NCBI GenBank assembly: GCA_038062915.1
Contig: JBBTWD010000016.1
Span: 27,522 to 91,521 of the forward strand
Direction of reading: 5' to 3'
Length of the DNA: 64,000 nucleotides
Origin: Patescibacteria group bacterium
GTDB taxonomy: Bacteria > Patescibacteriota > Microgenomatia > UBA8517
Below, one piece after another: positions 1 through 49,326 of this stretch (positions are counted from its first letter, which is position 1; each line of letters begins with the position of its first letter). A model generated the notes under the pieces. It was given only the letters and a program-made list of their open reading frames with translations, made no database searches and had not been told where the DNA came from. The position numbers and the translations under genes are program-made.

Positions 1-479
1 ATGAAAGCGGTTATTGGTAACAAACTAACCCTTTTTTCTTTTAATATTTTAACTCCAAGAAATATAAATAATGATGTGAATAAAAAGTGAAGTGCGTGTG
101 GATCGGCTTTAATAGCAACTGTCCACAAAGTTGGATTGACCGAAAGAAGAATCCCAAAAGTTATTGCAAGGAATAATTTTTTTGTAAGCTTGAATAGTAA
201 ATAAGAAAAAATATAAATACCCAGACTAACAAATATTGCCGAAAGAAAGTTCATTCTCCAGGCCACTGAATTAAAATGGAATATGGTCAGAAATATTTTA
301 CCAATGACCACATAAGTTGGGTAACCAGTAGGGTGGCCGATATCGAATGTGTAAGGGATGGTTTGAAATTCACCTGTGTCCCAAAATCCCACACCAGGCA
401 ATAAAGTTTTCAAATAAATCGCGAGAGGTAGTATGAAGGCAAGTATTAAAAACTTACCCATCCGAATTTGTTTATCCAT
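1..479 (-). CDS. GT-C fold membrane glycosyltransferase (DUF2723/protein O-mannosyltransferase-like), N-terminal part; runs off window start
   Basis: Minus-strand ORF starting ATG at 477-479 (MDKQIRMGKFLILAFILPLAIYLKTLLPGVGFWDTGEFQTIPYTFDIGHPTGYPTYVV...), open to position 1. The D.GE...GHPPGYP signature is typical of DUF2723 GT-C enzymes. Not in the ORF track because it is truncated by the window edge. Confidence 0.5.
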   Translation of the reverse strand, partial: MDKQIRMGKFLILAFILPLAIYLKTLLPGVGFWDTGEFQTIPYTFDIGHPTGYPTYVVIGKIFLTIFHFNSVAWRMNFLSAIFVSLGIYIFSYLLFKLTKKLFLAITFGILLSVNPTLWTVAIKADPHALHFLFTSLFIFLGVKILKEKRVSLLPITAF

Positions 480-1591
480 ATAACTCCCCAGAGGTTAACA
501 ACTACTCCAATAAAAAGTAGTATCCAATGATATTTTTTCAAACCCACTTTCTCGATGCCTTTAATGGTCAAAAGTGTCAAGAATGGATAAAAATCGACTG
601 CATACCTATAACCAAACTGGGTCCAACCTGTTCCACCTCTTAATGCAACTAGTATAAAGATCAAAATGACGGCTAGCCACAGCATCTTTGTGAGATTTTC
701 TTTAATTGGTGACCAAAACGCAAAAATGAAAACCGGGGTAGTTATCCAAATGGCAAGTCCGTACCACGAGGGTTGAATATATGGTGGGTGATTAAAAAAG
801 TTAGGAAGTTTTAGGAAGAGTATTTTTAAATGTTCTGGAATATAGGCGATATTTAGCATACCCTTAGAAAACCAGGGTTCAGAATAAATCCCAGGTATTA
901 GGAAGTATCCCTTATCTAAAACTGTCCCAAATCTTATAAAATTGTAGTAAAAATTAAACAATACAAAAGGAAGAATACCCAGTCCTAGATAAAAATATTT
1001 TTTAAACCAATCCTTATTAGCTAGTAGGTACAAAAACAAAGGAAGGGATAAAATTGTATGTAGACGTGATAAAAATGCGCTACCCAAAAAGATTCCAATG
1101 AGAAAAGAACGCCTTTTATTTAAACTTTCGTAAAGTGCAGCTGTAGTCAAAAAAGCGGCACTAACTTGCCCCAAATACCAAACCGAACCGGTTGCGGAAA
1201 GATACCAGACAATGCTTCCAAAGCCAATCATTATTCCAAAAAAAATAGCTAGTGGATAACTCTTTTTAAGTTTGTAAGAAATGGCCATTGTTAAAATAAT
1301 AATTCCAGCTCCCAAAATATGCGCTAGATATTGTTGTTCAAAGTTTTTTCCGAAGAAATAGACAAAAGGAAATGATAAAATTGCTGGCATAGGCGGCTGG
1401 ATTACATAGAACCTGCCTCCTGGCCCGGGAACCAGTTCAGATAACCAGTGGGGATTTTCACTTAGGTAGTATTTACCCTGCAGAAACGAACTGGAAAGTC
1501 GGGTAAAATAATCGTAAGGGGTTTTTCCTGCGGAAGTTAAATAATAAACAATGAGAGAAAAGACAAAAGCTAAAATAAAAAGTTTTTTCAT
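446..1591 (-). CDS. polytopic membrane protein, divergent paralog of the downstream GT-C glycosyltransferase
   Basis: 381 aa with many TM segments. N-terminus (MKKLFILAFVFSLIVYYLTSAGKTP) parallels the downstream gene N-terminus (MGKFLILAFILPLAIYLKTLLPGVGF) but lacks the D.GE/GHPxGYP signature. Confidence 0.45.
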   Translation of the reverse strand: MKKLFILAFVFSLIVYYLTSAGKTPYDYFTRLSSSFLQGKYYLSENPHWLSELVPGPGGRFYVIQPPMPAILSFPFVYFFGKNFEQQYLAHILGAGIIILTMAISYKLKKSYPLAIFFGIMIGFGSIVWYLSATGSVWYLGQVSAAFLTTAALYESLNKRRSFLIGIFLGSAFLSRLHTILSLPLFLYLLANKDWFKKYFYLGLGILPFVLFNFYYNFIRFGTVLDKGYFLIPGIYSEPWFSKGMLNIAYIPEHLKILFLKLPNFFNHPPYIQPSWYGLAIWITTPVFIFAFWSPIKENLTKMLWLAVILIFILVALRGGTGWTQFGYRYAVDFYPFLTLLTIKGIEKVGLKKYHWILLFIGVVVNLWGVIWINKFGWVSF

Positions 1592-4932: not shown

Positions 4933-5796
4933 TTATTTCCATTGATTTAATATTTTAACTTGTGCTGAAATGTTAAATGTTGTTGTTCCTGCCGGAATTG
5001 TATAAAGATCACAAAATTCATTCTTGCCCCCGCCCGGCCTTTTACCTATCGTTTCCGGCCTTGTGGTTCCATTAACAGTGAACCTTGCGGCTGTAAATTG
5101 AACTCGATCTTGTGCTGGGGTAGTAGTTCCAGTTGCACAGAAATTAACTTGGTTATTAGCTTTGAGGCTAGAAAGCTGAGCTACACTTAGTTGCGTCCAT
5201 GTTGGAGAATAGGCTTTAATATTTTGACAACTAGCGGTGGGAGTGCCATCACCATCATTTACAACACATCTACCACACTTGTCACCAGAAAGAGGTATCC
5301 ATTTACATTTATCTGCCTTTTCTATAGTACATTCCCGTTCGGCAGTTGCGCAGTCTGTTGCCCCAGATTCAGAACAAGTTTCTTCGTATGCTTTTTCTGA
5401 AACACTTTGTTTTTGTTGGGTCAAGATTACTCCTCCGGCGATGCCGCCAATTAATAAAAATAATCCCAATATTGTTGCGATGATTTTTCCTCCGCCGAAT
5501 TTTTTCTTTGGTGGTGGGGAAACCATCATTGAGGACACGTCGTCTAGTGGTGCAGCTGTTCCACCACTTTCACTGGCGATTGGAGACTGGAGATTGGAGA
5601 CTGGCTGCGAGTCTTCAGTTGGCATAGATGAAATATCTGAAGTATCTGCCATTTGAAAGTCAGGGACAGTTATAACTGGATTATCGTCAACTGGGGGAAC
5701 TACCGGAGTTTGAACCGGATCTGTTTGAGTTGGGTCCAACTTCGCTGAAGCTCCGCTGGATAAATCAGATTGATTGGGCATGTTTATAGGTAACAA
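4933..5796 (-). CDS. bitopic protein: Pro/Ser-rich disordered N-terminal region, single TM, Cys-rich extracytoplasmic domain
   Basis: 287 aa. KKKFGGGKIIATILGLFLLIGGIAGGVIL TM at about residue 110. 14 Cys in the C-terminal half. Internal 12-bp tandem repeat (gattggagactg x2) at 5561-5590. Confidence 0.4.
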   Translation of the reverse strand: MLPINMPNQSDLSSGASAKLDPTQTDPVQTPVVPPVDDNPVITVPDFQMADTSDISSMPTEDSQPVSNLQSPIASESGGTAAPLDDVSSMMVSPPPKKKFGGGKIIATILGLFLLIGGIAGGVILTQQKQSVSEKAYEETCSESGATDCATAERECTIEKADKCKWIPLSGDKCGRCVVNDGDGTPTASCQNIKAYSPTWTQLSVAQLSSLKANNQVNFCATGTTTPAQDRVQFTAARFTVNGTTRPETIGKRPGGGKNEFCDLYTIPAGTTTFNISAQVKILNQWK

Positions 5797-39300: not shown

Positions 39301-39638
39301 CCCAAATGGGTGGCCAGAGACTTGGGGAAATGGAAGTCTGGGCGCTTGAGGCACATAGAGCCAGCCATACCTTGCAAGAAATGCTTACTATTAAAAGTGA
39401 TGATGTAACAGGAAGAGCTAAAGCTTTTGAGGCAATTGTCAAAGGAATAGATATCCCAGAGGCAACTATTCCTGAATCGTTTAAAGTACTTGTTCGCGAA
39501 CTAAATTCACTATGTCTTTTTATAGAACCCAAAGGGGTAAGATTTGTTAAAGAAGATGAGGTTATCGGCCTTGCTGGGCAGGAGTTGGCTAAAGAGGCTG
39601 GAGCCGAAATCGTAGCAACGGAGGAAGTGGTATTATGA
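36324..39638 (+). CDS. rpoB: DNA-directed RNA polymerase subunit beta
   Basis: 1104 aa with canonical beta-subunit blocks. Confidence 0.97.
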   Translation: MTQAKKRRNFGKEEKDLPEINLSLVQKESWGWFLTEGIKEELVNVSPIDDFTGKNWQLKLGDHTLLPPTITPKVAEIKGLTYSSSLKIRATLVNKKTGKEVSQDVFLGDVPQMTTRGTFIVNGIERAVINQIVRSPGVYFSGELDASSGRILYKAEVRPLHGSWLEFEVTRSDLIYARIDRRRKVLATVFLRAIGVATDQEIASVFADIDKGADHKYIGTTLAKDLAKSREEALLEIYRKLRPGEPVILDNAKSLFETLFLDHRRYDMGKVGRFKVNRRLGLNLPNDKATWVLTKQDVVATLSYLINLQNGIGRIDDIDHLANRRLRRVGELVAVNAFRVGLLRLERSIKEKMSLISPDDKPLPANLINARPLIASLNEFFRSNQLSTILDDTNPLSEVDNLRRVSVLGPGGINRERASFSIRDVNASQYGRIDPVRSPEGPNIGLVTYLALYARVNEFGFIETPYRKVEKKKITSETVYLAADDEENFYITHSGVNIDKNGNITDKRVPLRFAGKFIEGSSDLVNYIDVTPRQVIGASASLIPFLANDEGNRALMGSNMQCQSVPLVNPESPIIGTGMEGIIAQGMGRVIRARHAGVVEYADNEKVVVKLDAKISIDSKTNEEEIIEGGRKEVYGLTKFRRTAHSTCYNQILRVSPGDRVQAGDLLIDGPASQNGELGLGRNLVIAYTNFGGYGFEDAILVSDRLVREDLLTSVHIEEYDAEVVDTKLGPEELTRDIPNVAEMELASLAEDGIVVIGAEVSPNDILVGKIAPKGETELTSEERLLRAIFGEKAREVRDTSLRVPHGEKGIVVDVQVLDREKGDELGPGVIKKVVVKVAQIRKITVGDKVAGRHGNKGVIAKIMPVGDMPYLDDGTPVDIIISPLSVLSRMNLGQLMEAHLGWALSKKGEKVALPVFDKIDENIIARELEEAGLPVNGKTRLHDGRTGEVFKEDTVVGISYIMKLTHMVEDKTHARSTGPYSLVTQQPLGGKAQMGGQRLGEMEVWALEAHRASHTLQEMLTIKSDDVTGRAKAFEAIVKGIDIPEATIPESFKVLVRELNSLCLFIEPKGVRFVKEDEVIGLAGQELAKEAGAEIVATEEVVL

Positions 39639-42600
39639 ACGAGCAACAAAACGACCTGAAAAACCTAGGTGATTTTTCCAGTCTTGTTGTGAGGTTGGCA
39701 TCGTCAGATGAAATAAGACGATGGAGTAGGGGTGAGGTTACAAAACCTGAAACGATTAATTACAGAACCCTCAAACCCGAAAAAGACGGTCTTTTTGACG
39801 AAAGAATTTTTGGGCCAACCAAAGACTGGGAGTGTTATTGTGGTAAATATAAAAGGATTAGATATAAAGGAGTAATTTGTGATAAATGTGGAGTTGAAGT
39901 AACACAAAGTAGAGTAAGACGAGAGAGAATGGGACATATAACACTAGCCACTCCTACCGCCCATGTTTGGTTTTTTAAAGGGGCACCTTCTAAAATATCA
40001 CTTCTTCTTGGGGTTCCCCCTCGTGGAATGGAGCAGGTAATTTATTTTGCCAGATACCTTGTTATTAATGTTGACGAAGAAAAGAAAAAAATAGCAGTCA
40101 AAAATATTACTAGTGCCATGGACGAGAGACTCAAAGAGACAATGGAATCGTATAGAGAGAAACGCGAAGCCCTTTCGGCTGAAGGTGTAATTGCAAAAGA
40201 AAAGATAAAAGAAAAAATAAAAGATAAGGAACAGGCTTCTTTGGCGATATCAGAAATAGAGTTAGACCTAAGAAAGAAAGATGTGGCAATAACAGAAGAA
40301 GAAAAATCAACTATAGTAAAAACAGAGCAACTTTTTGAAAATTTGATTTCAGTTGTCAAAGTTCTTAAACCACTAAGTATTTTAAGCGAGGAAGAGTATG
40401 ACGAGCTTGGTGTGCATGGAGCTTCAGACTTTTTTACAGCTGGAATGGGTGCTGATGCATTGCTTTCAGCAGTCGAAAAAATAGATCTTGAAACTATCTC
40501 AAAGACCTTGCGAGAAGAAATAGGAAGTGCTAAGGGGGGAAGTTCAAGATATATTAAATTAGTTAAAAGATTAAAATTAATTGATGGACTAAGAAGGGCT
40601 AAGGTTGACCCTTCTTGGATGATTCTTAAGGTTTTGCCGGTTTTACCCCCAGACCTAAGACCTATGGTTCAGCTTTCGGGGGGCAGGTTTGCAACAAGTG
40701 ACTTAAATGATCTTTATAGGCGAGTAATAAATAGGAACAATCGTCTTAAACATTTGATTGGACTAGGTGCCCCAGAGATAATTTTAAGAAACGAGAAAAG
40801 AATGTTGCAAGAATCGGTTGATTCACTAATTGATGCCTCTCAAAGGAAAGCAACAAGAAAATCCCGAGGTCGCCAACCATTAAGGTCTTTATCTGACATG
40901 CTTCGAGGTAAACAAGGTAGGTTCAGACAGAATTTATTAGGTAAAAGAGTCGACTATTCGGGACGAAGCGTAATTATTATTGGCCCAGAACTTAAGCTTA
41001 ATCAATGTGGACTTCCCAAAGATATGGCTCTTGAGATGTTTAAACCATTTGTTTTGAGGGAAATGATATCAAGAGGTATCGCCCCCAACGTTAAAAGTGC
41101 AAAGAACATGTTAGAGCGCCGTCCTCCGGAAGTGTTTGATATTTTGGAAGAAATTACAAAAGATCATCCAGTTCTACTTAACAGAGCGCCTACATTACAC
41201 AAGCTTTCAATTCAAGCTTTTTACCCCGTTTTAATTGAAGGAAGTGCCATCAGAGTTCATCCTGCGGTCTGTGCGGCCTTTAATGCTGATTTTGACGGGG
41301 ATCAAATGGCGGTTCACGTCCCCTTGTCCTCAAAAGCAATCGAGGAAGCTAAAACCCTAATGCTTCCTGAAAATAATCTCCTTCGACCTTCTGATGGTAG
41401 CCCTGTTGCCACTCCATCTACAAAAGAAATAGCTTTGGGGGTTTATTATTTAACATCAGAAGATTCAAGAATTTCGCTATATCAGAGTATTTTAGGAGAT
41501 AGAGATGAAGCAATAACTGCATACCAAGCTGGGAAAATCGAAGTTCGACAAAAAATTAAAGTAAGGCTTGATAAGACAATTATAGAAACAACCCCTGGCA
41601 GAATTCTTTTTAACGAAGTTCTTCCTGAAAATTTTGATTTTGTTAATGAGGCGATAACATCTTCAGTCATAAAGACGCTTTTTAGCACAGCATATTTAAC
41701 CTGTTCACGCTCTCGTGTTACACAAATGGTAGACGATATTAAAGATCTAGGATTTTTTGGAGGAACAATTTCAGGCCTATCTTTCGGAATATTTGACGCT
41801 AAACTTTATCCAGGAAAAGGTAAGGCGCTTTTAGAAGCAGATGCAAGAGTTACAGAGATTGATGAGAATTTTGCACAAGGTTTAATTACAGCCGAGGAGA
41901 AAAAACGTTTAAATCAAGAAGTTTGGATCGAAACGGCTGAAGATCTTTCTGACAAGACCTGGGATGGGCTTGAGGCAACCAATCCAATAAGAATAATTAT
42001 CGACGCTAAAGTGGGGCGTGCTTCAAAAGACCAAGTTAAACAGCTAGCAGCAATTCGTGGACTTGTGGTTGATCCTTTAGGAAAAATCGTTGAGCTTCCA
42101 ATTAAATCTAATTTCAGAGAGGGTTTGTCAATTTTTGAATATGTCACTTCATCTAGAGGTTCTAGGAAAGGTTTAACCGATACTGCGATTAAAACTGCGG
42201 ATGCAGGATATCTAACTAGGAGACTTGTTGATGTTGCCCATGATGTTTTGATCCGGCATGAGGATTGTGGAACCAAAGATGGGTTTGAAATTAGGAAAGA
42301 TGTTAGGTCGGGATCTTTTGTTAATAGAATTACAGGCAGATTTGTAGCAAAAGATATTCTAACCAAAATGAGCAAGAAACCACTTGTTGTTGCGGGGGAT
42401 CTTATAGAGGAGGAAATGGCCAAAAAGATTGATGAAGTTGGAATAACTGAAGTGGTAATTAGGTCTCCCCTAACATGTGAGTCAAGATATGGGATGTGTG
42501 TTAAATGTTATGGTTGGGATCTGGGAACCAAGAGCTTGGTGGAAGTTGGAATGCCGGTCGGAGTCGTTGCTGCCCAATCAATTGGAGAACCTGGCACCCA

Positions 42601-43363
42601 GCTTACTTTAAAAACTAAACATGCGGCTGGGATTATTGGAGTTGACGTTACTCAAGGATTGCCTCGTGTTGAAGAATTGGTTGAAAGCAGAACCCCAAAA
42701 GTTGTTTCTGCATTATCTGAAATTACAGGTAAGGCAAGAATAGGTGAAACAGATGCTGGCTGGAAGGTTGTTATTTCTTCGGGAAGGGGAGCTCCTAAAG
42801 AAGAAAGAGAATATATAATTCCAAAAACATTACAACTAGCCATAAAAGACGGTGAAGTGGTTGAGGCCGGACAGCCATTATCTCATGGGCCACTTGATGT
42901 TAAAGATGTCCTTTCGATTAGAGGTGTCCGTGCGGCTCAAGAATATGTTGTTCATGAAATTCAAAAAGTCTATGAGTCACAGGGAATTCCAATAAATGAT
43001 AAACATTTTGAAGTGATTGTCAGAAAGATGACTGATGAGGTTAGAATTGTAACTCCTGGGGATACACAGTTCTTACCAGGTGAGCTTGCAAGCAGAACAA
43101 TGTTTCAAGAGGAAAATGATAAAACCTTGGCTGCTGGTGGAGAACCGGGGAGTGCACAGCAGGTGGTCTTGGGGATTACCAGGCGCGCCCTTTATACAGA
43201 TAGCTGGCTTTCAGCGGCATCATTTGAACAAACAACAGACGTTTTAACAGAAGCTTCACTATTTAGCCGTGAAGACAGGTTACTTGGTTTGAAAGAAAAT
43301 GTTATTATAGGCAGGCTGATTCCTGTGAGTGCAGAAAGGGCCCATTTAGATGCCAACAATTAA
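39635..43363 (+). CDS. rpoC: DNA-directed RNA polymerase subunit beta'
   Basis: 1242 aa. NADFDGD catalytic motif. ATGA overlap with rpoB. Confidence 0.97.
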
Positions 43364-43775
43364 TCAACTAGTCAGAGGTGGTAGGAAAGTTATCCAAAAA
43401 AAGACAAAAACCACGTCTCTTAAACGTTGGTTTAATGCTAAAGATAGAGTTTACAGTGAAACCGCTTCCCCTTTTAAACGTGGAGTAGTTTTGGCAGTTA
43501 GAACCATGACGCCAAGGAAGCCAAATTCAGCCCTAAGAAAGGTCGCAAGAGTGAGACTTTCTAATAAACAAGAGGTCACAGCTTATATTCCGGGTGAGGG
43601 GCATGAACTTGCAGAGCACTCAATCATTTTGGTGCGGGGTGGTCGCGTTAAAGACCTTCCGGGTGTAAGATACAAAATTGTTCGTGGGAAATTTGATACG
43701 ACAGGTGTGGTTGGCAGGTTAAAAGGAAGGAGTAAATATGGCGCGAAAAGGAGCAGTAAAACCAAGGCAAGTTAA
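43350..43775 (+). CDS. rpsL: 30S ribosomal protein S12
   Basis: [13 protein letters not shown]... Confidence 0.95.
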
Positions 43776-44217
43776 TTTAGACCCTATTTATGACAGCATA
43801 CTTGTAACAAAGCTGGTAAATAGGAGCATGCGTGATGGAAAAAAGAGTGTCGCCCAGAAAGAAATTTATAAGGCTTTTGATTTGATCAAAGAAAAACTAA
43901 AAGATGATCCGATAAAAATCTTCACACTTGCCATTGAAAATATTAAACCTTCGATGGAAGTTAAAGCAAGAAGAGTTGGGGGAGCCGCTTATCAGGTTCC
44001 TCAAGCGGTTAGAGGGCCAAGAAAAGAGTCATTGGCCATTAGGTGGCTCATTGAGATTGCTAATAAAAGATCTAATTCGGAGTTCCACACATATGCTGGA
44101 AAACTAGCGGCAGAAATAATTGAGGCTTCAAAAAGCGAAGGTGGAGCGGTCAAGAAAAGAACCGACATGGAGCGAGTAGCCGAGGCAAACAAGGCATTTT
44201 CCCACTTTAGGTGGTAA
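43738..44217 (+). CDS. rpsG: 30S ribosomal protein S7
   Basis: 159 aa. Canonical S7. Confidence 0.95.
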
Positions 44218-44226
44218 CAAATCGAT

Positions 44227-44466
44227 ATGACGATATCTTTCACAACAAGTAGTAGTAATGTTAGTAAAGAAAGAATGTATGCACCGTTAGGAGCCCAGAC
44301 CATGAGAGAATTACCTGATTTTGATGCTATAAAAGAAGAAGATCTTCAAGTTGGTACTTCAGTTGGAGCGAGTCCGATTGTTCCACGCACTTGGGTCGAT
44401 CCCGATAAACATATATATTTGCACGGTGAAGAAGGTGTATTGGCTGCCCTAAAAAACAAAAGATAG
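44227..44466 (+). CDS. hypothetical small protein
   Basis: 79 aa, no recognisable family. Convergent with the PIN gene. Confidence 0.25.
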   Translation: MTISFTTSSSNVSKERMYAPLGAQTMRELPDFDAIKEEDLQVGTSVGASPIVPRTWVDPDKHIYLHGEEGVLAALKNKR

Positions 44467-44468
44467 TA

Positions 44469-44912
44469 CTACTGCTCCAGGTTTAAAATAGTTATTTCTT
44501 GTACAAACTCTTTTGGTGAAACTATTTTTATACCTCTAAAGTTTTTAATTAGTAAAACATGTTTTTTATCACCACTAACAATGTAATCGGCTTTGGCCTC
44601 AAAAGCACAAGAAAAGAGTTTGTCATCATCTGAATCGAGCGAAGTTTTGACATTAATTTCTTCAGGAACAATTATTGAAGTTTTCAAAAGTTCAGCAGAA
44701 ACATTTTGAATTTCGGTTTGACTTAGCTTTATAAATTTTTGAACCTTTGGATAATTAAAAGCTCTTTCTAAATCTCTTAAAATAGAAAATGAAGTCGCAA
44801 ATAAAATCTTATCTTGCCTCCAAAGTTTTAGAATCAGAGAGGGTGGGGTATTTGAGAAAGCAAGACCGCTTAAGATTACATTAACATCAGGAACAACTAT
44901 GACTGGAATCAT
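44469..44912 (-). CDS. PIN-domain toxin (VapC-like/TA-system PIN family)
   Basis: VVPDVNVILSGL N-terminus and DSDDDKLFSCAFEAKADYIVSGDKKHVL acidic-pocket motifs. Confidence 0.65.
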   Translation of the reverse strand: MIPVIVVPDVNVILSGLAFSNTPPSLILKLWRQDKILFATSFSILRDLERAFNYPKVQKFIKLSQTEIQNVSAELLKTSIIVPEEINVKTSLDSDDDKLFSCAFEAKADYIVSGDKKHVLLIKNFRGIKIVSPKEFVQEITILNLEQ

Positions 44913-45157
44913 ATCTGATTTGTTGCTTCGTCAATCGCAGCTTGAACTTCTGACTGTTTGTATTTTGAAGTATTTTTGCGAATCTTTTCAATTGTTTTAA
45001 AAAGTCTATCTTTTGATTCCTGTCTGTATTTTCGAAATTGTTCAAATTGAATCATAGAAACTAGCACCGCCTTTGGCTTTCCTGCACGTTCGATTATAAA
45101 AGCCATTTGTTTCAAATCAACTTGGTCAAGATAGGTTCCAGGCTGTTTTCTAAAATT
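44909..45157 (-). CDS. Phd/YefM-type antitoxin
   Basis: MNFRKQPGTYLDQVDLKQMAFIIERAGKPKAVLVSMIQFEQF. Stop overlaps the PIN start (ATGA-type coupling). The start may instead be at 45202. Confidence 0.5.
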   Translation of the reverse strand, partial: NFRKQPGTYLDQVDLKQMAFIIERAGKPKAVLVSMIQFEQFRKYRQESKDRLFKTIEKIRKNTSKYKQSEVQAAIDEATNQI

Positions 45158-45591
45158 CATGGCACTAATTGAAGCTGTACCTGAAAGCGAATTGTTTATC
45201 ATAATTATATCAATTATAGTAATTACAACAGTCTTGTCAAGTATCACTTTACATCTTGACTTCCGCAGAGAGAGAGTAATATTTGGGTTGAAATGAACTG
45301 GAAAGAATTTCTCACAACTCCATTTACTGTGGAAAAAGAAGCTACTGGAGTTTATCTTGGTCACGCTATCGACGCTCAAAAGGACTTAGAAGTAATTGAA
45401 GCGGTTCAGTTAGGCGGACATGTACCACCTGGCTTAGATGCTATTAAAAGAAGAGCTGCCATAAACGCAAGAAGAGCCAATGATCAATTAAAACATGAAT
45501 CTCCGATGCCAGGGGTAAAAGACTAGGTTATCTCATTGATCCCCAAACCTATCTCTGTTAAAATCACTCTTGCTCCGGAAGGAGTTTTTGT

Positions 45592-47760
45592 ATGGCGGAA
45601 GTAGCAAAGAAAAAGGCGAGCATTATCATGACGGCCACAAAGGACCGTAATGTTCCTTTGGAAAAGATCCGAAATATTGGGATTATCGCCCACATTGATG
45701 CGGGTAAAACAACAACTACTGAAAGATTATTGTTCGAGACAGGCCGAACGTACAAGCAAGGCTCCGTCGATGATGGAACAACGGTAACTGACTGGATGGC
45801 CCAAGAGAGAGAACGAGGAATTACTATAGTTTCTGCGGCAATTACAGCCTTTTGGGATATTAAAAACACAACTTCAGTTGAATCTGGGCATTATAGAATT
45901 AACTTAATTGACACCCCGGGCCATATTGATTTTACGGCAGAAGTTGAGCGCTCATTACGTGTTTTGGATGGAGCTGTTATGGTTTTTGATGGTAGAACTG
46001 GAGTTGAAAGTCAAAGTGAAACTGTTTGGAGGCAGGCTGATAAATATAATGTTCCCAGAATCTGCGTACTTAATAAATTAAATTTAATTGGAGCTGATTT
46101 TGAAGGATCAATTAAATCAATTCACGAGAGACTTGGTGCCAATGCAGCGCCCGTTATTATTCCAATAGGTCAGGAACATGACCATCGAGGAGTTGTTGAT
46201 TTAGTTAAAATGAGGGCATTTACTTTTAAGGCCATTGAGGATGCAAATTTAACTGAAGGCGAAATCCCTACCGAATTTGTCGAAATGGCCAAGAAATATA
46301 GAGTTCATCTACTTGAAAAAGCCTGTGAGTTTGACGATGAAGCACTGTCAAAGTTTTTAGAAGGTCAGGAAATTGATGAGCTAATTCTTAAAAGGGCGAT
46401 TAGAAAGGGAGTAATTTCTGGTAAATTCTTCCCTATTTTTGGAGGGGACAATAGGACCGCAGAAGCACAACTTTTATTAAATGGAGTTGTTGAATATTTG
46501 CCTTCACCAACAGACCTTCCACCAGTATCTGGAATTGATACTAAAACTGGTGAAAAAACCCAAAGGGAAAGAAAAAGTGACGCACAGCTTAGTGCCTTGG
46601 CTTTTAAAGTAATGACAGATCCACATGTCGGTAGACTTGTTTATATGAGAGTTTATTCAGGTACTCTTAAGGCTGGTCAGGCAGTTTATAATTCAACCAA
46701 ACAAGTTGCCGAAAGAATAGGAAAACTGGTTTTACTTCATGCAGATCAAAGGGAATTAATAGAAGAAGCTTATGCTGGAGAAATTGTGGCTGTTGTTGGA
46801 GTAAAAGATACAACTACTGGAGACACAATTTCTGATTCGGGGAACCCAATTGTTCTTGAGTCAATAAGTTTTCCAGAACCTGTTATCTCGCTTGCAATCG
46901 AACCCGCCACAAAAAGCGATCAAGAAAAAATGGGACTTGCCTTAGGAAAACTTTCTGATGAGGATCCTACATTTAGAATTAAAAGTAATCCCGAAACAGG
47001 GCAAACTATTATCTCCGGAATGGGAGAACTCCAGCTTGAAGTATTGGTTGATCGTATGAAGAGAGAGTTTAATGTGGAGGCTACAACTGGGGCTCCACAA
47101 GTAGCCTATAAAGAGACGATCAAGAAAATTGGTGAAGGAGAAGGAAAATATATAAGACAAACCGGAGGACGTGGACAGTATGGACATGCTTTACTTCGTC
47201 TTGAGCCATTGGGTCGTGGAGAAGGATTTGAATTTAAGAGCGAGATTAAGGGCGGATCTATTCCCCAGGAATACATTTCTCCAATCGAAAAGGGAGTCAA
47301 AGAAAAGATGGAAAATGGGGTTATGGCGGGATTCCCTATGGTTGACATGAGAGTAATAGTTTTCGATGGTAGTTTCCATGACGTAGATTCAAGTGAAATT
47401 GCATTCAAAATTGCAGGTTCGATGGCACTTGAGGACGCTTTCAAAAAATCCGATCCAATACTTCTTGAGCCAGTAATGAAAGTTGAAGTTTCAACTCCAG
47501 ATGAATTTATGGGAGATGTAATCGGGGATCTTTCAAGTAAAAGGGCACAAGTGTCGGGAACTGACAAAAGAGGAACAATGACAGTTGTTAATGCTTTAGC
47601 ACCTTTGGCTGAACTTTCAGGATATGCCACAAAACTTAGATCTCTATCCCAAGGACGAGCAAGCTACTACATGGAGCCAAGCCACTACGAAGAAGTACCT
47701 AGAAACATTGCTGATGCTATTGTTGCCAAGGCCGGTAAGATCACAATGGCAAGAGGGTAG
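45592..47760 (+). CDS. fusA: elongation factor G
   Basis: AHIDAGKTT, DTPGH and NKLN motifs. 722 aa. Confidence 0.97.
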   Translation: MAEVAKKKASIIMTATKDRNVPLEKIRNIGIIAHIDAGKTTTTERLLFETGRTYKQGSVDDGTTVTDWMAQERERGITIVSAAITAFWDIKNTTSVESGHYRINLIDTPGHIDFTAEVERSLRVLDGAVMVFDGRTGVESQSETVWRQADKYNVPRICVLNKLNLIGADFEGSIKSIHERLGANAAPVIIPIGQEHDHRGVVDLVKMRAFTFKAIEDANLTEGEIPTEFVEMAKKYRVHLLEKACEFDDEALSKFLEGQEIDELILKRAIRKGVISGKFFPIFGGDNRTAEAQLLLNGVVEYLPSPTDLPPVSGIDTKTGEKTQRERKSDAQLSALAFKVMTDPHVGRLVYMRVYSGTLKAGQAVYNSTKQVAERIGKLVLLHADQRELIEEAYAGEIVAVVGVKDTTTGDTISDSGNPIVLESISFPEPVISLAIEPATKSDQEKMGLALGKLSDEDPTFRIKSNPETGQTIISGMGELQLEVLVDRMKREFNVEATTGAPQVAYKETIKKIGEGEGKYIRQTGGRGQYGHALLRLEPLGRGEGFEFKSEIKGGSIPQEYISPIEKGVKEKMENGVMAGFPMVDMRVIVFDGSFHDVDSSEIAFKIAGSMALEDAFKKSDPILLEPVMKVEVSTPDEFMGDVIGDLSSKRAQVSGTDKRGTMTVVNALAPLAELSGYATKLRSLSQGRASYYMEPSHYEEVPRNIADAIVAKAGKITMARG

Positions 47761-47770
47761 GATCTTCTAA

Positions 47771-47799
47771 TTGACATAAAAATTGAAAGATAGTATATT
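47771..47799 (+). promoter_or_regulatory. near-consensus sigma70 promoter TTGACA-17-TATATT
   Basis: Lies 11 bp after the fusA stop and drives a 69-aa ORF. Confidence 0.5.
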
Positions 47800-47805
47800 T
47801 ACGAT

Positions 47806-48016
47806 CATGAATCAGGACGATTTAGCCAAAGTTACAGCGGAGGAATTAACCAAACTATTCGAAAATGGTAGGGCGAAATTAACTCGATCTGTTGGCAATT
47901 ATCACGTATTGAGTATAGACAATGAAACAGTTGGAGGCATGTTTCAAAATTCATATGAAGGACCGTATGTCATTAAAGTTGGAGAGCGGATTGTCGGTTT
48001 TACGACTGACCGATAA
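47806..48016 (+). CDS. hypothetical small protein between fusA and tuf
   Basis: MNQDDLAKVTAEELTKLFENGRAKL... The ORF-track start at 47783 lies inside the promoter, so the ATG at 47806 is preferred. Confidence 0.35.
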
Positions 48017-48024
48017 TTTCCCTG

Positions 48025-48054
48025 TTGACAGGCGTGATTAGCCTCGAATATAAT
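48025..48054 (+). promoter_or_regulatory. consensus sigma70 promoter TTGACA-18-TATAAT upstream of tuf
   Basis: Perfect hexamers at 48025-48030 and 48049-48054. Confidence 0.55.
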
Positions 48055-48063
48055 TCAAGTTAT

Positions 48064-48090
48064 CAAGAGCAAGTTTGCTCTTGTTTATTT
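48064..48090 (+). terminator. perfect 9-bp stem hairpin + T-rich tract (terminator of small ORF and/or 5' stem-loop of tuf mRNA)
   Basis: caagagcaa-gt-ttgctcttg followed by tttattt. Confidence 0.4.
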
Positions 48091-48135: not shown

Positions 48136-49326
48136 ATGGCAGACGCAAAACAAAAATTTGATAGAACAAAACCACATGTAAACGTTGGCACCATTGGTCA
48201 TGTTGATCATGGTAAAACCACACTTACTTCAGCTATTACTATGGTTTTGGCCAAGCAAGGGCTTGCTAAAGCTAAAACTTATGCAGATATAGATAGCGCT
48301 CCGGAAGAAAAGGAACGAGGGGTTACAATCAATCTTTCTCATCAAGAGTACGAAACAAAGAAACGTCACTATGCCCACATAGACGCTCCGGGGCACGCAG
48401 ATTACATCAAGAACATGATTACAGGAGCGGCCCAAATGGATGGCGCTATTTTGGTTGTTTCAGCGGCCGATGGACCCATGCCTCAAACTCGAGAACATGT
48501 AATTTTAGCCAGACAGGTTAATGTTCCAGCGCTCGTAGTCTTTCTTAATAAATGTGATACGGTTGACGATCCTGAAATCATTGACTTGGTTGAAGCAGAT
48601 GTCCGAGAGCTTCTAAAGAAGTATGAGTACGAAGGTGACAAAGTCCCTGTAATTAGAGGATCCGCTCTTAAGGCAACCGAGGGGGACGCGGAGGCCGAGA
48701 AAAAGATTCTAGAGCTTATGGAAGCGGTTGATACTTATATCCCAGATCCGGTCCGAGATGTAGATAAACCATTCCTAATGCCTGTTGAGGATGTATTTAC
48801 CATCCAAGGCCGTGGTACGGTTGTCACGGGTAGAGTCGAAAGAGGACAAATCAAAGTTAACGAAGAAATTGAAATTGTTGGGATTAAAGACACTCAAAAG
48901 TCAGTTGTAACCGGGCTTGAGATGTTCAGAAAAACCTTGGACGATGCTATGGCAGGAGATAATGTTGGTGTACTACTTCGCGGTATCGAAAAAGATCAGG
49001 TAGAACGTGGTCAGGTTTTGGCTAAGTCTGGAAGTGTAACTCCTCATACAGAATTTGAAGCTGAAGTGTACATTTTAAGCAAAGAAGAAGGTGGAAGACA
49101 TACGCCATTCTTCACAGGTTACAAACCGCAATTCTATATTAGAACAGCCGATGTTACGGGTGAGGCTACTCTTCCAGAAGGAATTGAAATGGTTATGCCT
49201 GGAGACAATGCTAAGATGAAAGTTAAGTTAATTCAGCCAGTTGCAGCAGAAGAAGGTTTAAGATTTGCAATTCGAGAGGGTGGACATACAGTTGGAGCTG
49301 GTGTAATCACTAAGATTTTGGCCTAA
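48136..49326 (+). CDS. tuf: elongation factor Tu
   Basis: [15 protein letters not shown] and NKCD motifs. 396 aa. Confidence 0.97.

Follow-up and report, generated by a model that had tools for sequence, protein, structure and literature searches.

How does a pair of genes resembling a toxin-antitoxin (TA) system come to lie on the opposite strand between rpsG and fusA, inside an operon held to be among the most conserved in bacteria? The question is raised by a 64,000-nucleotide stretch from a Patescibacteria group bacterium (contig JBBTWD010000016.1 of assembly GCA_038062915.1, positions 27,522 to 91,521; hereafter, the window). The gene order and strand of the canonical str operon, rpsL-rpsG-fusA-tuf, are kept in it, but rpsG and fusA are split, 1374 nt apart, by the antisense pair, one gene encoding a PIN-domain protein and the other a Phd/YefM-like protein, and by two small open reading frames (ORFs), termed ORF79 and ORF77; another orphan ORF splits fusA from tuf. 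The answer we hold with good confidence is that the pair forms a self-contained cassette of the VapBC-like type II TA kind, about 785 bp long, and that it fills a lineage-specific cargo slot at the rpsG-fusA junction of a Woesebacteria-like Patescibacteria genome. The arrangement itself is confirmed: gene order is identical in independent assemblies made from other sequencing runs of Hainich groundwater samples (L001, L002, L090-L094), so that an assembly chimera is ruled out.

The product of the downstream gene, a protein of 147 aa, scores 48 bits against PF13470 (PIN_3; cut-off 27) and 66.3 bits against TIGR00305 (cut-off 29.15), and carries the motif ADYIVSGDKKHV at residues 108-119. When it is aligned with 10 homologues, residues D9, S41, D96 and D115 prove invariant, and position 47 is D or E in 10 of the 11 sequences; D47 we take to be, by analogy with VapC, the likely fourth acidic residue, equivalent to E42 of distant homologues. 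An AlphaFold model built on the homologue alignment (predicted local distance difference test, 90.6; predicted template-modelling score, 0.87) was compared with the PDB by Foldseek: its top 25 matches are almost all PIN domains, at template-modelling scores of 0.5-0.65, the best of them including 7vwo, 1o4w, the SMG6 PIN domain, VapC4, VapC15 and VapC20, and the structures matched are also named as PcrIIC1, a M. tuberculosis TA complex and AF0591. Profile cut-offs, predicted fold and acidic residues thus all point to a PIN_3/TIGR00305 toxin.

The upstream gene could start at the ATG at 45202, giving 97 aa, or at an internal Met at 45160. The former is better, because a motif N-terminal to the internal Met, S/T-I-S-A-M-D/N-F/L-R, is kept in L004, L005 and L006, because the score against PF02604 (PhdYeFM; cut-off 29.8) rises from 30.9 bits for the short form to 33.5 bits for the 97-aa form, which aligns from profile position 3, and because gene callers also choose the longer form. 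The protein gives in addition a weak match to the P1 Phd structures. Its gene shares 4 nt with that of the toxin, stop over start (ATGA, 44909-44912), and, of 80 related PIN_3 genes from metagenomes, 28 have a Phd homologue immediately upstream. The gene arrangement is that of a type II TA operon: antitoxin first, same strand, overlapping. A first-pass annotation of the window, made from its sequence, had named the two genes as PIN toxin and Phd-like antitoxin and proposed profile searches as a check; PF13470, TIGR00305 and PF02604 all pass their cut-offs, and the ORF listing and the sequence agree with the overlapping upstream antitoxin and the antisense placement that it described.

Like VapBC type II systems with PIN_3 toxins (PF13470/COG1569/TIGR00305), the cassette has a small PIN toxin gene downstream of, and overlapping, the gene for a small DNA-binding antitoxin, and PIN_3 is listed among the VapC-group families of TA toxins (PMC5499597). 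Unlike them, it has an antitoxin of the Phd/YefM type and a toxin to which no solved structure is related in sequence. In surveyed Tn3-family transposons PIN_3 pairs with RHH_6/VapB antitoxins, and PIN-Phd pairs are also known (PMC7157771). With Phd-Doc and YefM-YoeB the cassette shares the N-terminal Phd/YefM signature (PF02604), the leading position of the antitoxin gene and short repeats overlapping the promoter; it differs in having a PIN RNase in place of Doc or YoeB, a predicted leaderless mRNA and, as putative operator, AT-rich direct repeats on either side of the -10 box. A search of the literature for TA modules inside the str operon turned up nothing relevant. The Phd-PIN pair is a VapBC-like type II TA system of known type, in a location that is unusual but lineage-typical, and nothing sets it outside the known kind.

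Several observations weigh against this assignment. Toxicity and its neutralisation are predictions, and the promoter and operator described below are called from consensus matches and conservation only. The toxin sequence has no significant match in the PDB, and PADLOC found no match to known anti-phage defence families. The 84-aa form of the antitoxin scores 17.6 against NCBIfam TIGR01552 (phd_fam), below the cut-off of 20.8, and profile scores would thus place the protein in Phd/YefM above the Pfam cut-off and only marginally at subfamily level. The second catalytic acidic residue of the toxin is ambiguous: E42 of distant PIN_3 proteins is F or W in this clade, and F in the window. That the PIN protein is a nuclease domesticated (as an RNA-maturation factor, say) or inactive, in a pair that is no longer a TA system, could be argued from this difference, from the setting of the pair among translation genes and from a very weak NCBIfam match (16.6 bits; cut-off, 300) between the PIN protein and an rRNA maturation protein. 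We give that idea hardly any credence: three aspartates and S/T are invariant and position 47 is acidic; antitoxin, gene overlap and the layout of promoter and putative operator show the conservation to be expected of an active TA system; and the pair is missing from close relatives, which would be unexpected of a housekeeping factor.

The cassette carries its own control region. On the minus strand a perfect sigma-70 consensus (12/12), TTGACA at 45240-45235 and TATAAT at 45218-45213 with a 16-nt spacer, is followed after 10 nt by the antitoxin ATG, and the mRNA is therefore predicted to be leaderless or nearly so. The series TTGACA, spacer of 16-18 nt, TATAAT, 10 nt, ATG is kept in seven other loci, L004, L005, L006, L175, L176 and L177 among them, at antitoxin identities down to 46%. 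Two direct repeats of about 12 nt, TGTTGTAATTAC (45230-45219) and TGATATAATTAT (45212-45201), flank the -10 box, and the repeat pair (consensus TGTAkTAATTA) is present also in L004, L006, L175 and L176. In autoregulated Phd/YefM operons short repeats overlap the promoter, and we propose that these repeats are a putative operator to which the antitoxin could bind. At its other end the cassette converges on ORF79, the two stop codons being 2 nt apart. No terminator-like hairpin was found at this convergence, where the sequence folds no better than when shuffled; an intrinsic terminator there was accordingly rejected, and the transcripts of the ORF79 side and the TA side probably overlap.

We envisage the cassette to work as follows. 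The strong sigma-70-type promoter would drive a leaderless or near-leaderless bicistronic mRNA, on which the ATGA overlap would couple translation of the antitoxin (Phd/YefM, 97 aa) to that of the toxin (PIN RNase, 147 aa). The antitoxin would neutralise the toxin and, alone or in complex with it, would repress its own promoter via the two repeats around the -10 box; upon loss of the antitoxin, the toxin would arrest translation by cutting RNA, its target being, as for VapC toxins, tRNA or rRNA. The orientation of the cassette would break up the joint transcription of rpsL-rpsG and fusA: read towards rpsG and ORF79, and not closed by a terminator, the cassette would uncouple fusA from the rpsL-rpsG transcript, and fusA would be served instead by a divergent promoter-like element, which we call P*, and/or by a promoter-like site just ahead of the gene, with the good Shine-Dalgarno sequence AAGGAG. 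The first-pass annotation had the TA promoter firing into the fusA leader; it points the other way, away from fusA and towards rpsG, and the elements that do face fusA, P* (45256-45283) and the site at 45536-45564, are separate from it. A search with Rfam, up to E = 1, found no structured RNA or riboswitch in the rpsG-fusA and fusA-tuf spacers.

The extent of the cassette is revealed by L087, a 504-nt contig from a different well of the aquifer (Hainich H51) and from a nearly identical strain. ORF77 of L087 is 92% identical in amino acid sequence to that of the window and the DNA downstream is identical; left of window position 45254, L087 has (at 2-175) the 3' end of a plus-strand gene for a DUF559/Vsr-like endonuclease, and no TA genes. 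The exchange of TA for DUF559 at 45254 is thus strain-level allelic variation. Since homology to L087 resumes at 45254, the cassette is bounded to about 44467-45253, and the -35 box of the TA promoter lies 14 nt inside its right boundary. ORF79, counted by the first-pass annotation as part of the insertion, falls outside it: over its C-terminal 45 aa it shares 58% identity (E = 7e-17) with ORF63, which takes the same position after rpsG in the TA-less L010, and ORF79 is therefore independent of the TA cassette. GC content is 0.29-0.35 over 44450-45200, against 0.40-0.45 in the flanks. The 1.37-kb rpsG-fusA interval has no significant flanking direct or inverted repeats and no recombinase gene, the marks looked for in a mobile element.

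The GC trough, the near-identical strain L087 without the cassette, and the intact 32-55 nt junctions of the close relatives L008, L013 and L014 would all fit a recent and private horizontal insertion, in which a selfish TA module broke the str operon in this one organism, as the first-pass annotation had implied. We judge this unlikely in view of the occurrence of the same TA family at the same junction in six further genomes, with PIN proteins 40-76% and fusA 78-92% identical to those of the window and the pair mostly, as in the window, divergent to fusA; at least seven distinct genomes thus have it (the window, L004, L005, L006, L098, L175 and L176). PIN identity is 76% in L006, where fusA and an orphan ORF are followed by divergent Phd-PIN, and 74% in L004, where the order is rpsG, ORF84, ORF79', antisense Band_7-PIN-Phd, ORF89, fusA. 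It is 54% in L005 (Woesebacteria, GCA_016195365.1), which has fusA divergent to Phd-PIN, then methyltransferase and ABC-F genes and rpsG; 52% in L176, where PIN overlaps the rpsG stop and genes for an ABC ATPase and a NUDIX protein lie on the other side; 44% in L098, where PIN converges on an orphan ORF and rpsG; and 40% in L175, measured on a partial PIN (Phd, 67%), where tuf, fusA and ORF70 are followed by divergent Phd-PIN. Recurrence at such diverged identities argues for a family that has long resided in the clade or has been exchanged repeatedly at the site, and against a single recent event. TA-bearing and TA-less genomes are interspersed by rpsG and fusA identity, a pattern that fits long residence with repeated loss and fits equally an exchange among relatives through recombination. 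Homologues that are more distant (Phd 46%, PIN 32%) are found in L177-L180 directly upstream of rho and on the same strand (Phd at 6001-6318 in L177); these rho-linked Phd-PIN_3 pairs keep the same promoter and predicted leaderless layout. Around metagenomic PIN_3 relatives of at most 36% identity, on long contigs, no str genes were seen.

How exceptional is an interrupted junction in these bacteria? A fusA-based scan of GTDB species representatives gave 80 loci whose rpsG-fusA gaps, mapped by tblastn, were informative in 74 and uninformative in 6. The gap is at most 200 nt in 40 loci, 201-500 nt in 20 and above 500 nt in 11, and in 3 the 3 kb or more upstream are without rpsG; these last two classes make up 14 of the 74 (~19%). 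The first-pass annotation saw the splitting of a highly conserved operon, and had proposed comparing the junction in related genomes. The interruption is real, but its rarity was overstated; some close relatives do have the intact form, but the insertion is not a one-off. Of the nine relatives nearest by fusA (75-87% identity) only three, L008, L013 and L014, keep the compact junction. Elsewhere the junction holds an orphan ORF within 339 nt (L007), an antisense Trp-repressor-like gene (L009), membrane ORFs (L011), a homologue of ORF79 with an antisense Band_7 gene and an orphan ORF (L010), or 4.2 kb that include DUF559 and ORF6N genes (L028); in L012 the available 1.8 kb upstream of fusA has no rpsG and has an opposite-strand ORF of 548 aa, membrane-like. 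The junction is a recurrent cargo site in these bacteria, because relatives carry such varied genes inserted between rpsG and fusA. A Portnoybacteria genome (L056, 4248-4821) has at the same junction another TA-like pair, DUF433 with DUF5615/PIN-like, on the operon strand.

Facing fusA across the right boundary of the cassette is P*. In the window it reads TTGACT TCCGCAGAGAGAGAG TAATAT, a 9/12 promoter match, with the ATG of ORF77 10 nt downstream; its general form is TTGA(A/C)(T/A)T(T/C)CGCAGAGAGAGAG(AG)TAnTAT, with an ATG 7-10 nt downstream. Copies (core TTGAAT TCCGCAGAGAGAGAG TAnTAT) lie at 45256-45292 in the window, 446-482 (minus strand) in L004, 179-215 in L087, 3612-3648 and 4643-4680 in L010, 892-928 (minus strand) in L098 and 4946-4990 (minus strand) in L175; L006 and L007 have no exact match to the core, and viral contigs gave no match. 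Across the 1.3 Mb of loci retrieved, every occurrence of P* falls at the rpsG-fusA junction, and the window has a single copy. What follows it are small ORFs of 63-89 codons that are mutually unrelated: ORF77, its non-homologous counterparts in L004, L010 and L175, and, on the rpsG side, ORF63 of L010 and ORF88 of L098. Homology among the fusA-adjacent small ORFs of different genomes was looked for and rejected, the pair ORF79/L010 ORF63 excepted; those at the position of ORF77 in L004, L006, L007, L010 and L175 are unrelated to one another.

ORF77, which went unmentioned in the first-pass annotation although it lies within the interval that this described, matches no Pfam or NCBIfam family, and an exhaustive search returned only the 92% strain variant and a weak repeat-summed match. 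The latter, of residues 8-50 to P0030 (5171 aa; phmmer E = 1e-24, summed over 14 weak stretches), was judged unreliable: P0030 is a giant surface-type protein with the repeat unit APFTYYFDLNGAFLGHL..., and the match is probably an artefact of repeat summation. Between the window (45293-45526) and L087 (216-449) ORF77 differs by six substitutions, six nonsynonymous and none synonymous, and the flanking non-coding DNA by 1 difference in 92 nt. These differences give no sign of purifying selection, although six are too few for significance, and ORF77 may be fast-evolving or not translated. ORF79 likewise matches no Pfam or NCBIfam family, and a search of 5.8 billion proteins returned only itself.

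P* and the TA promoter stand back to back in the window, where their -35 boxes are 15 bp apart, and in L004 and L175. Their proximity might mean that the pair is functionally coupled to translation-factor expression, whether through the antitoxin, acting at the shared divergent promoter region to co-regulate P* and ORF77-fusA, or through the toxin, acting on the ribosomal EF-G binding site as VapC20 does. The conserved adjacency of TA and fusA would suit such coupling, as would the presence of VapC20, which cleaves the sarcin-ricin loop, among the structural matches (rank 25) and the distant homologues beside rho, another gene-expression gene. The adjacency is explained equally well, however, by vertical inheritance of a hot-spot occupant; P* also occurs where there is no TA (L010 and L087); in L176 and L098 the TA neighbours rpsG, and its promoter side is taken up by other genes or fusA is out of view; and the fold matches do not discriminate between targets. 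We therefore consider coupling very unlikely. A broader scheme, in which the junction is an organised cargo slot where P* would drive unrelated, fast-evolving, leaderless small ORFs and the long-resident Phd-PIN pair would share the back-to-back control region, linking the state of the TA system to P*/fusA output, seems to us decidedly doubtful. With the pair taken as a self-contained cassette in a cargo slot, the placing of P* before unrelated small ORFs and the hot-spot behaviour of the junction are the only points that are even mildly unexpected.

The supposedly inviolable rpsL-rpsG-fusA-tuf unit is thus often interrupted in Patescibacteria, and a TA module can persist inside it for long. 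This bears on how transcription of translation genes is organised and on where tiny genomes store accessory or conflict genes; the locus also offers a clean comparative example of a TA promoter and putative operator that predict a leaderless mRNA.

Features of the rpsG-fusA interval and its neighbourhood in the window (strand relative to the window).
Feature	Coordinates	Strand	Evidence
rpoC	39635-43363	+	ORF listing
rpsL	43350-43775	+	ORF listing
rpsG (ribosomal protein S7), left backbone gene	43738-44217	+	PF00177, 182 bits
ORF79, small hypothetical protein	44227-44466	+	start 9 nt past rpsG stop; end 2 nt from convergent PIN stop
Variable segment, TA cassette of ~785 bp (promoter/operator, antitoxin and toxin only)	44467-45253	-	right edge, L087 homology resumes at 45254; left edge, ORF79 stop; GC trough
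PIN-domain toxin (PIN_3/TIGR00305, VapC-like), 147 aa	44469-44912	-	profiles, alignment, AlphaFold, Foldseek
Phd/YefM-family antitoxin, 97 aa	44909-45202	-	PF02604 above cut-off; stop overlaps toxin start
Putative operator, two ~12-nt direct repeats around -10 box	45201-45230	-	sequence reading and conservation
TA promoter, TTGACA-16-TATAAT	45213-45240	-	12/12 consensus and conservation
P*, divergent promoter-like element	45256-45283	+	9/12 match and conservation
ORF77, orphan small ORF between TA cassette and fusA	45293-45526	+	no family match
Promoter-like site TTGATC, 17-nt spacer, TAAAAT, then Shine-Dalgarno AAGGAG, directly before fusA	45536-45564	+	consensus match only
fusA (EF-G), right backbone gene	45592-47760	+	Pfam GTP_EFTU, EFG_III, EFG_IV, EFG_C
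Orphan ORF, 77 aa, between fusA and tuf	47783-48016	+	no family match
tuf (followed by rpsJ)	48136-49326	+	ORF listing

The spacer between fusA and tuf is also variable among relatives, exceeding 1 kb in L010 and L011 for example, and the orphan ORF that it holds in the window has a weakly similar counterpart (29%) at the same position in L175. A second perfect promoter consensus (12/12; TTGACA, 18-nt spacer, TATAAT) lies upstream of tuf, within 48025-48083, followed directly by an 8-bp hairpin and T-run (48064-48083) that could be a leader/attenuator or the terminator of the preceding orphan ORF. The fusA product itself has an N-terminal extension of about 12 residues (MAEVAKKKASII, encoded within 45592-45630) ahead of the usual start region, and in the closest relatives (L007-L010) this extension aligns from residue 1.

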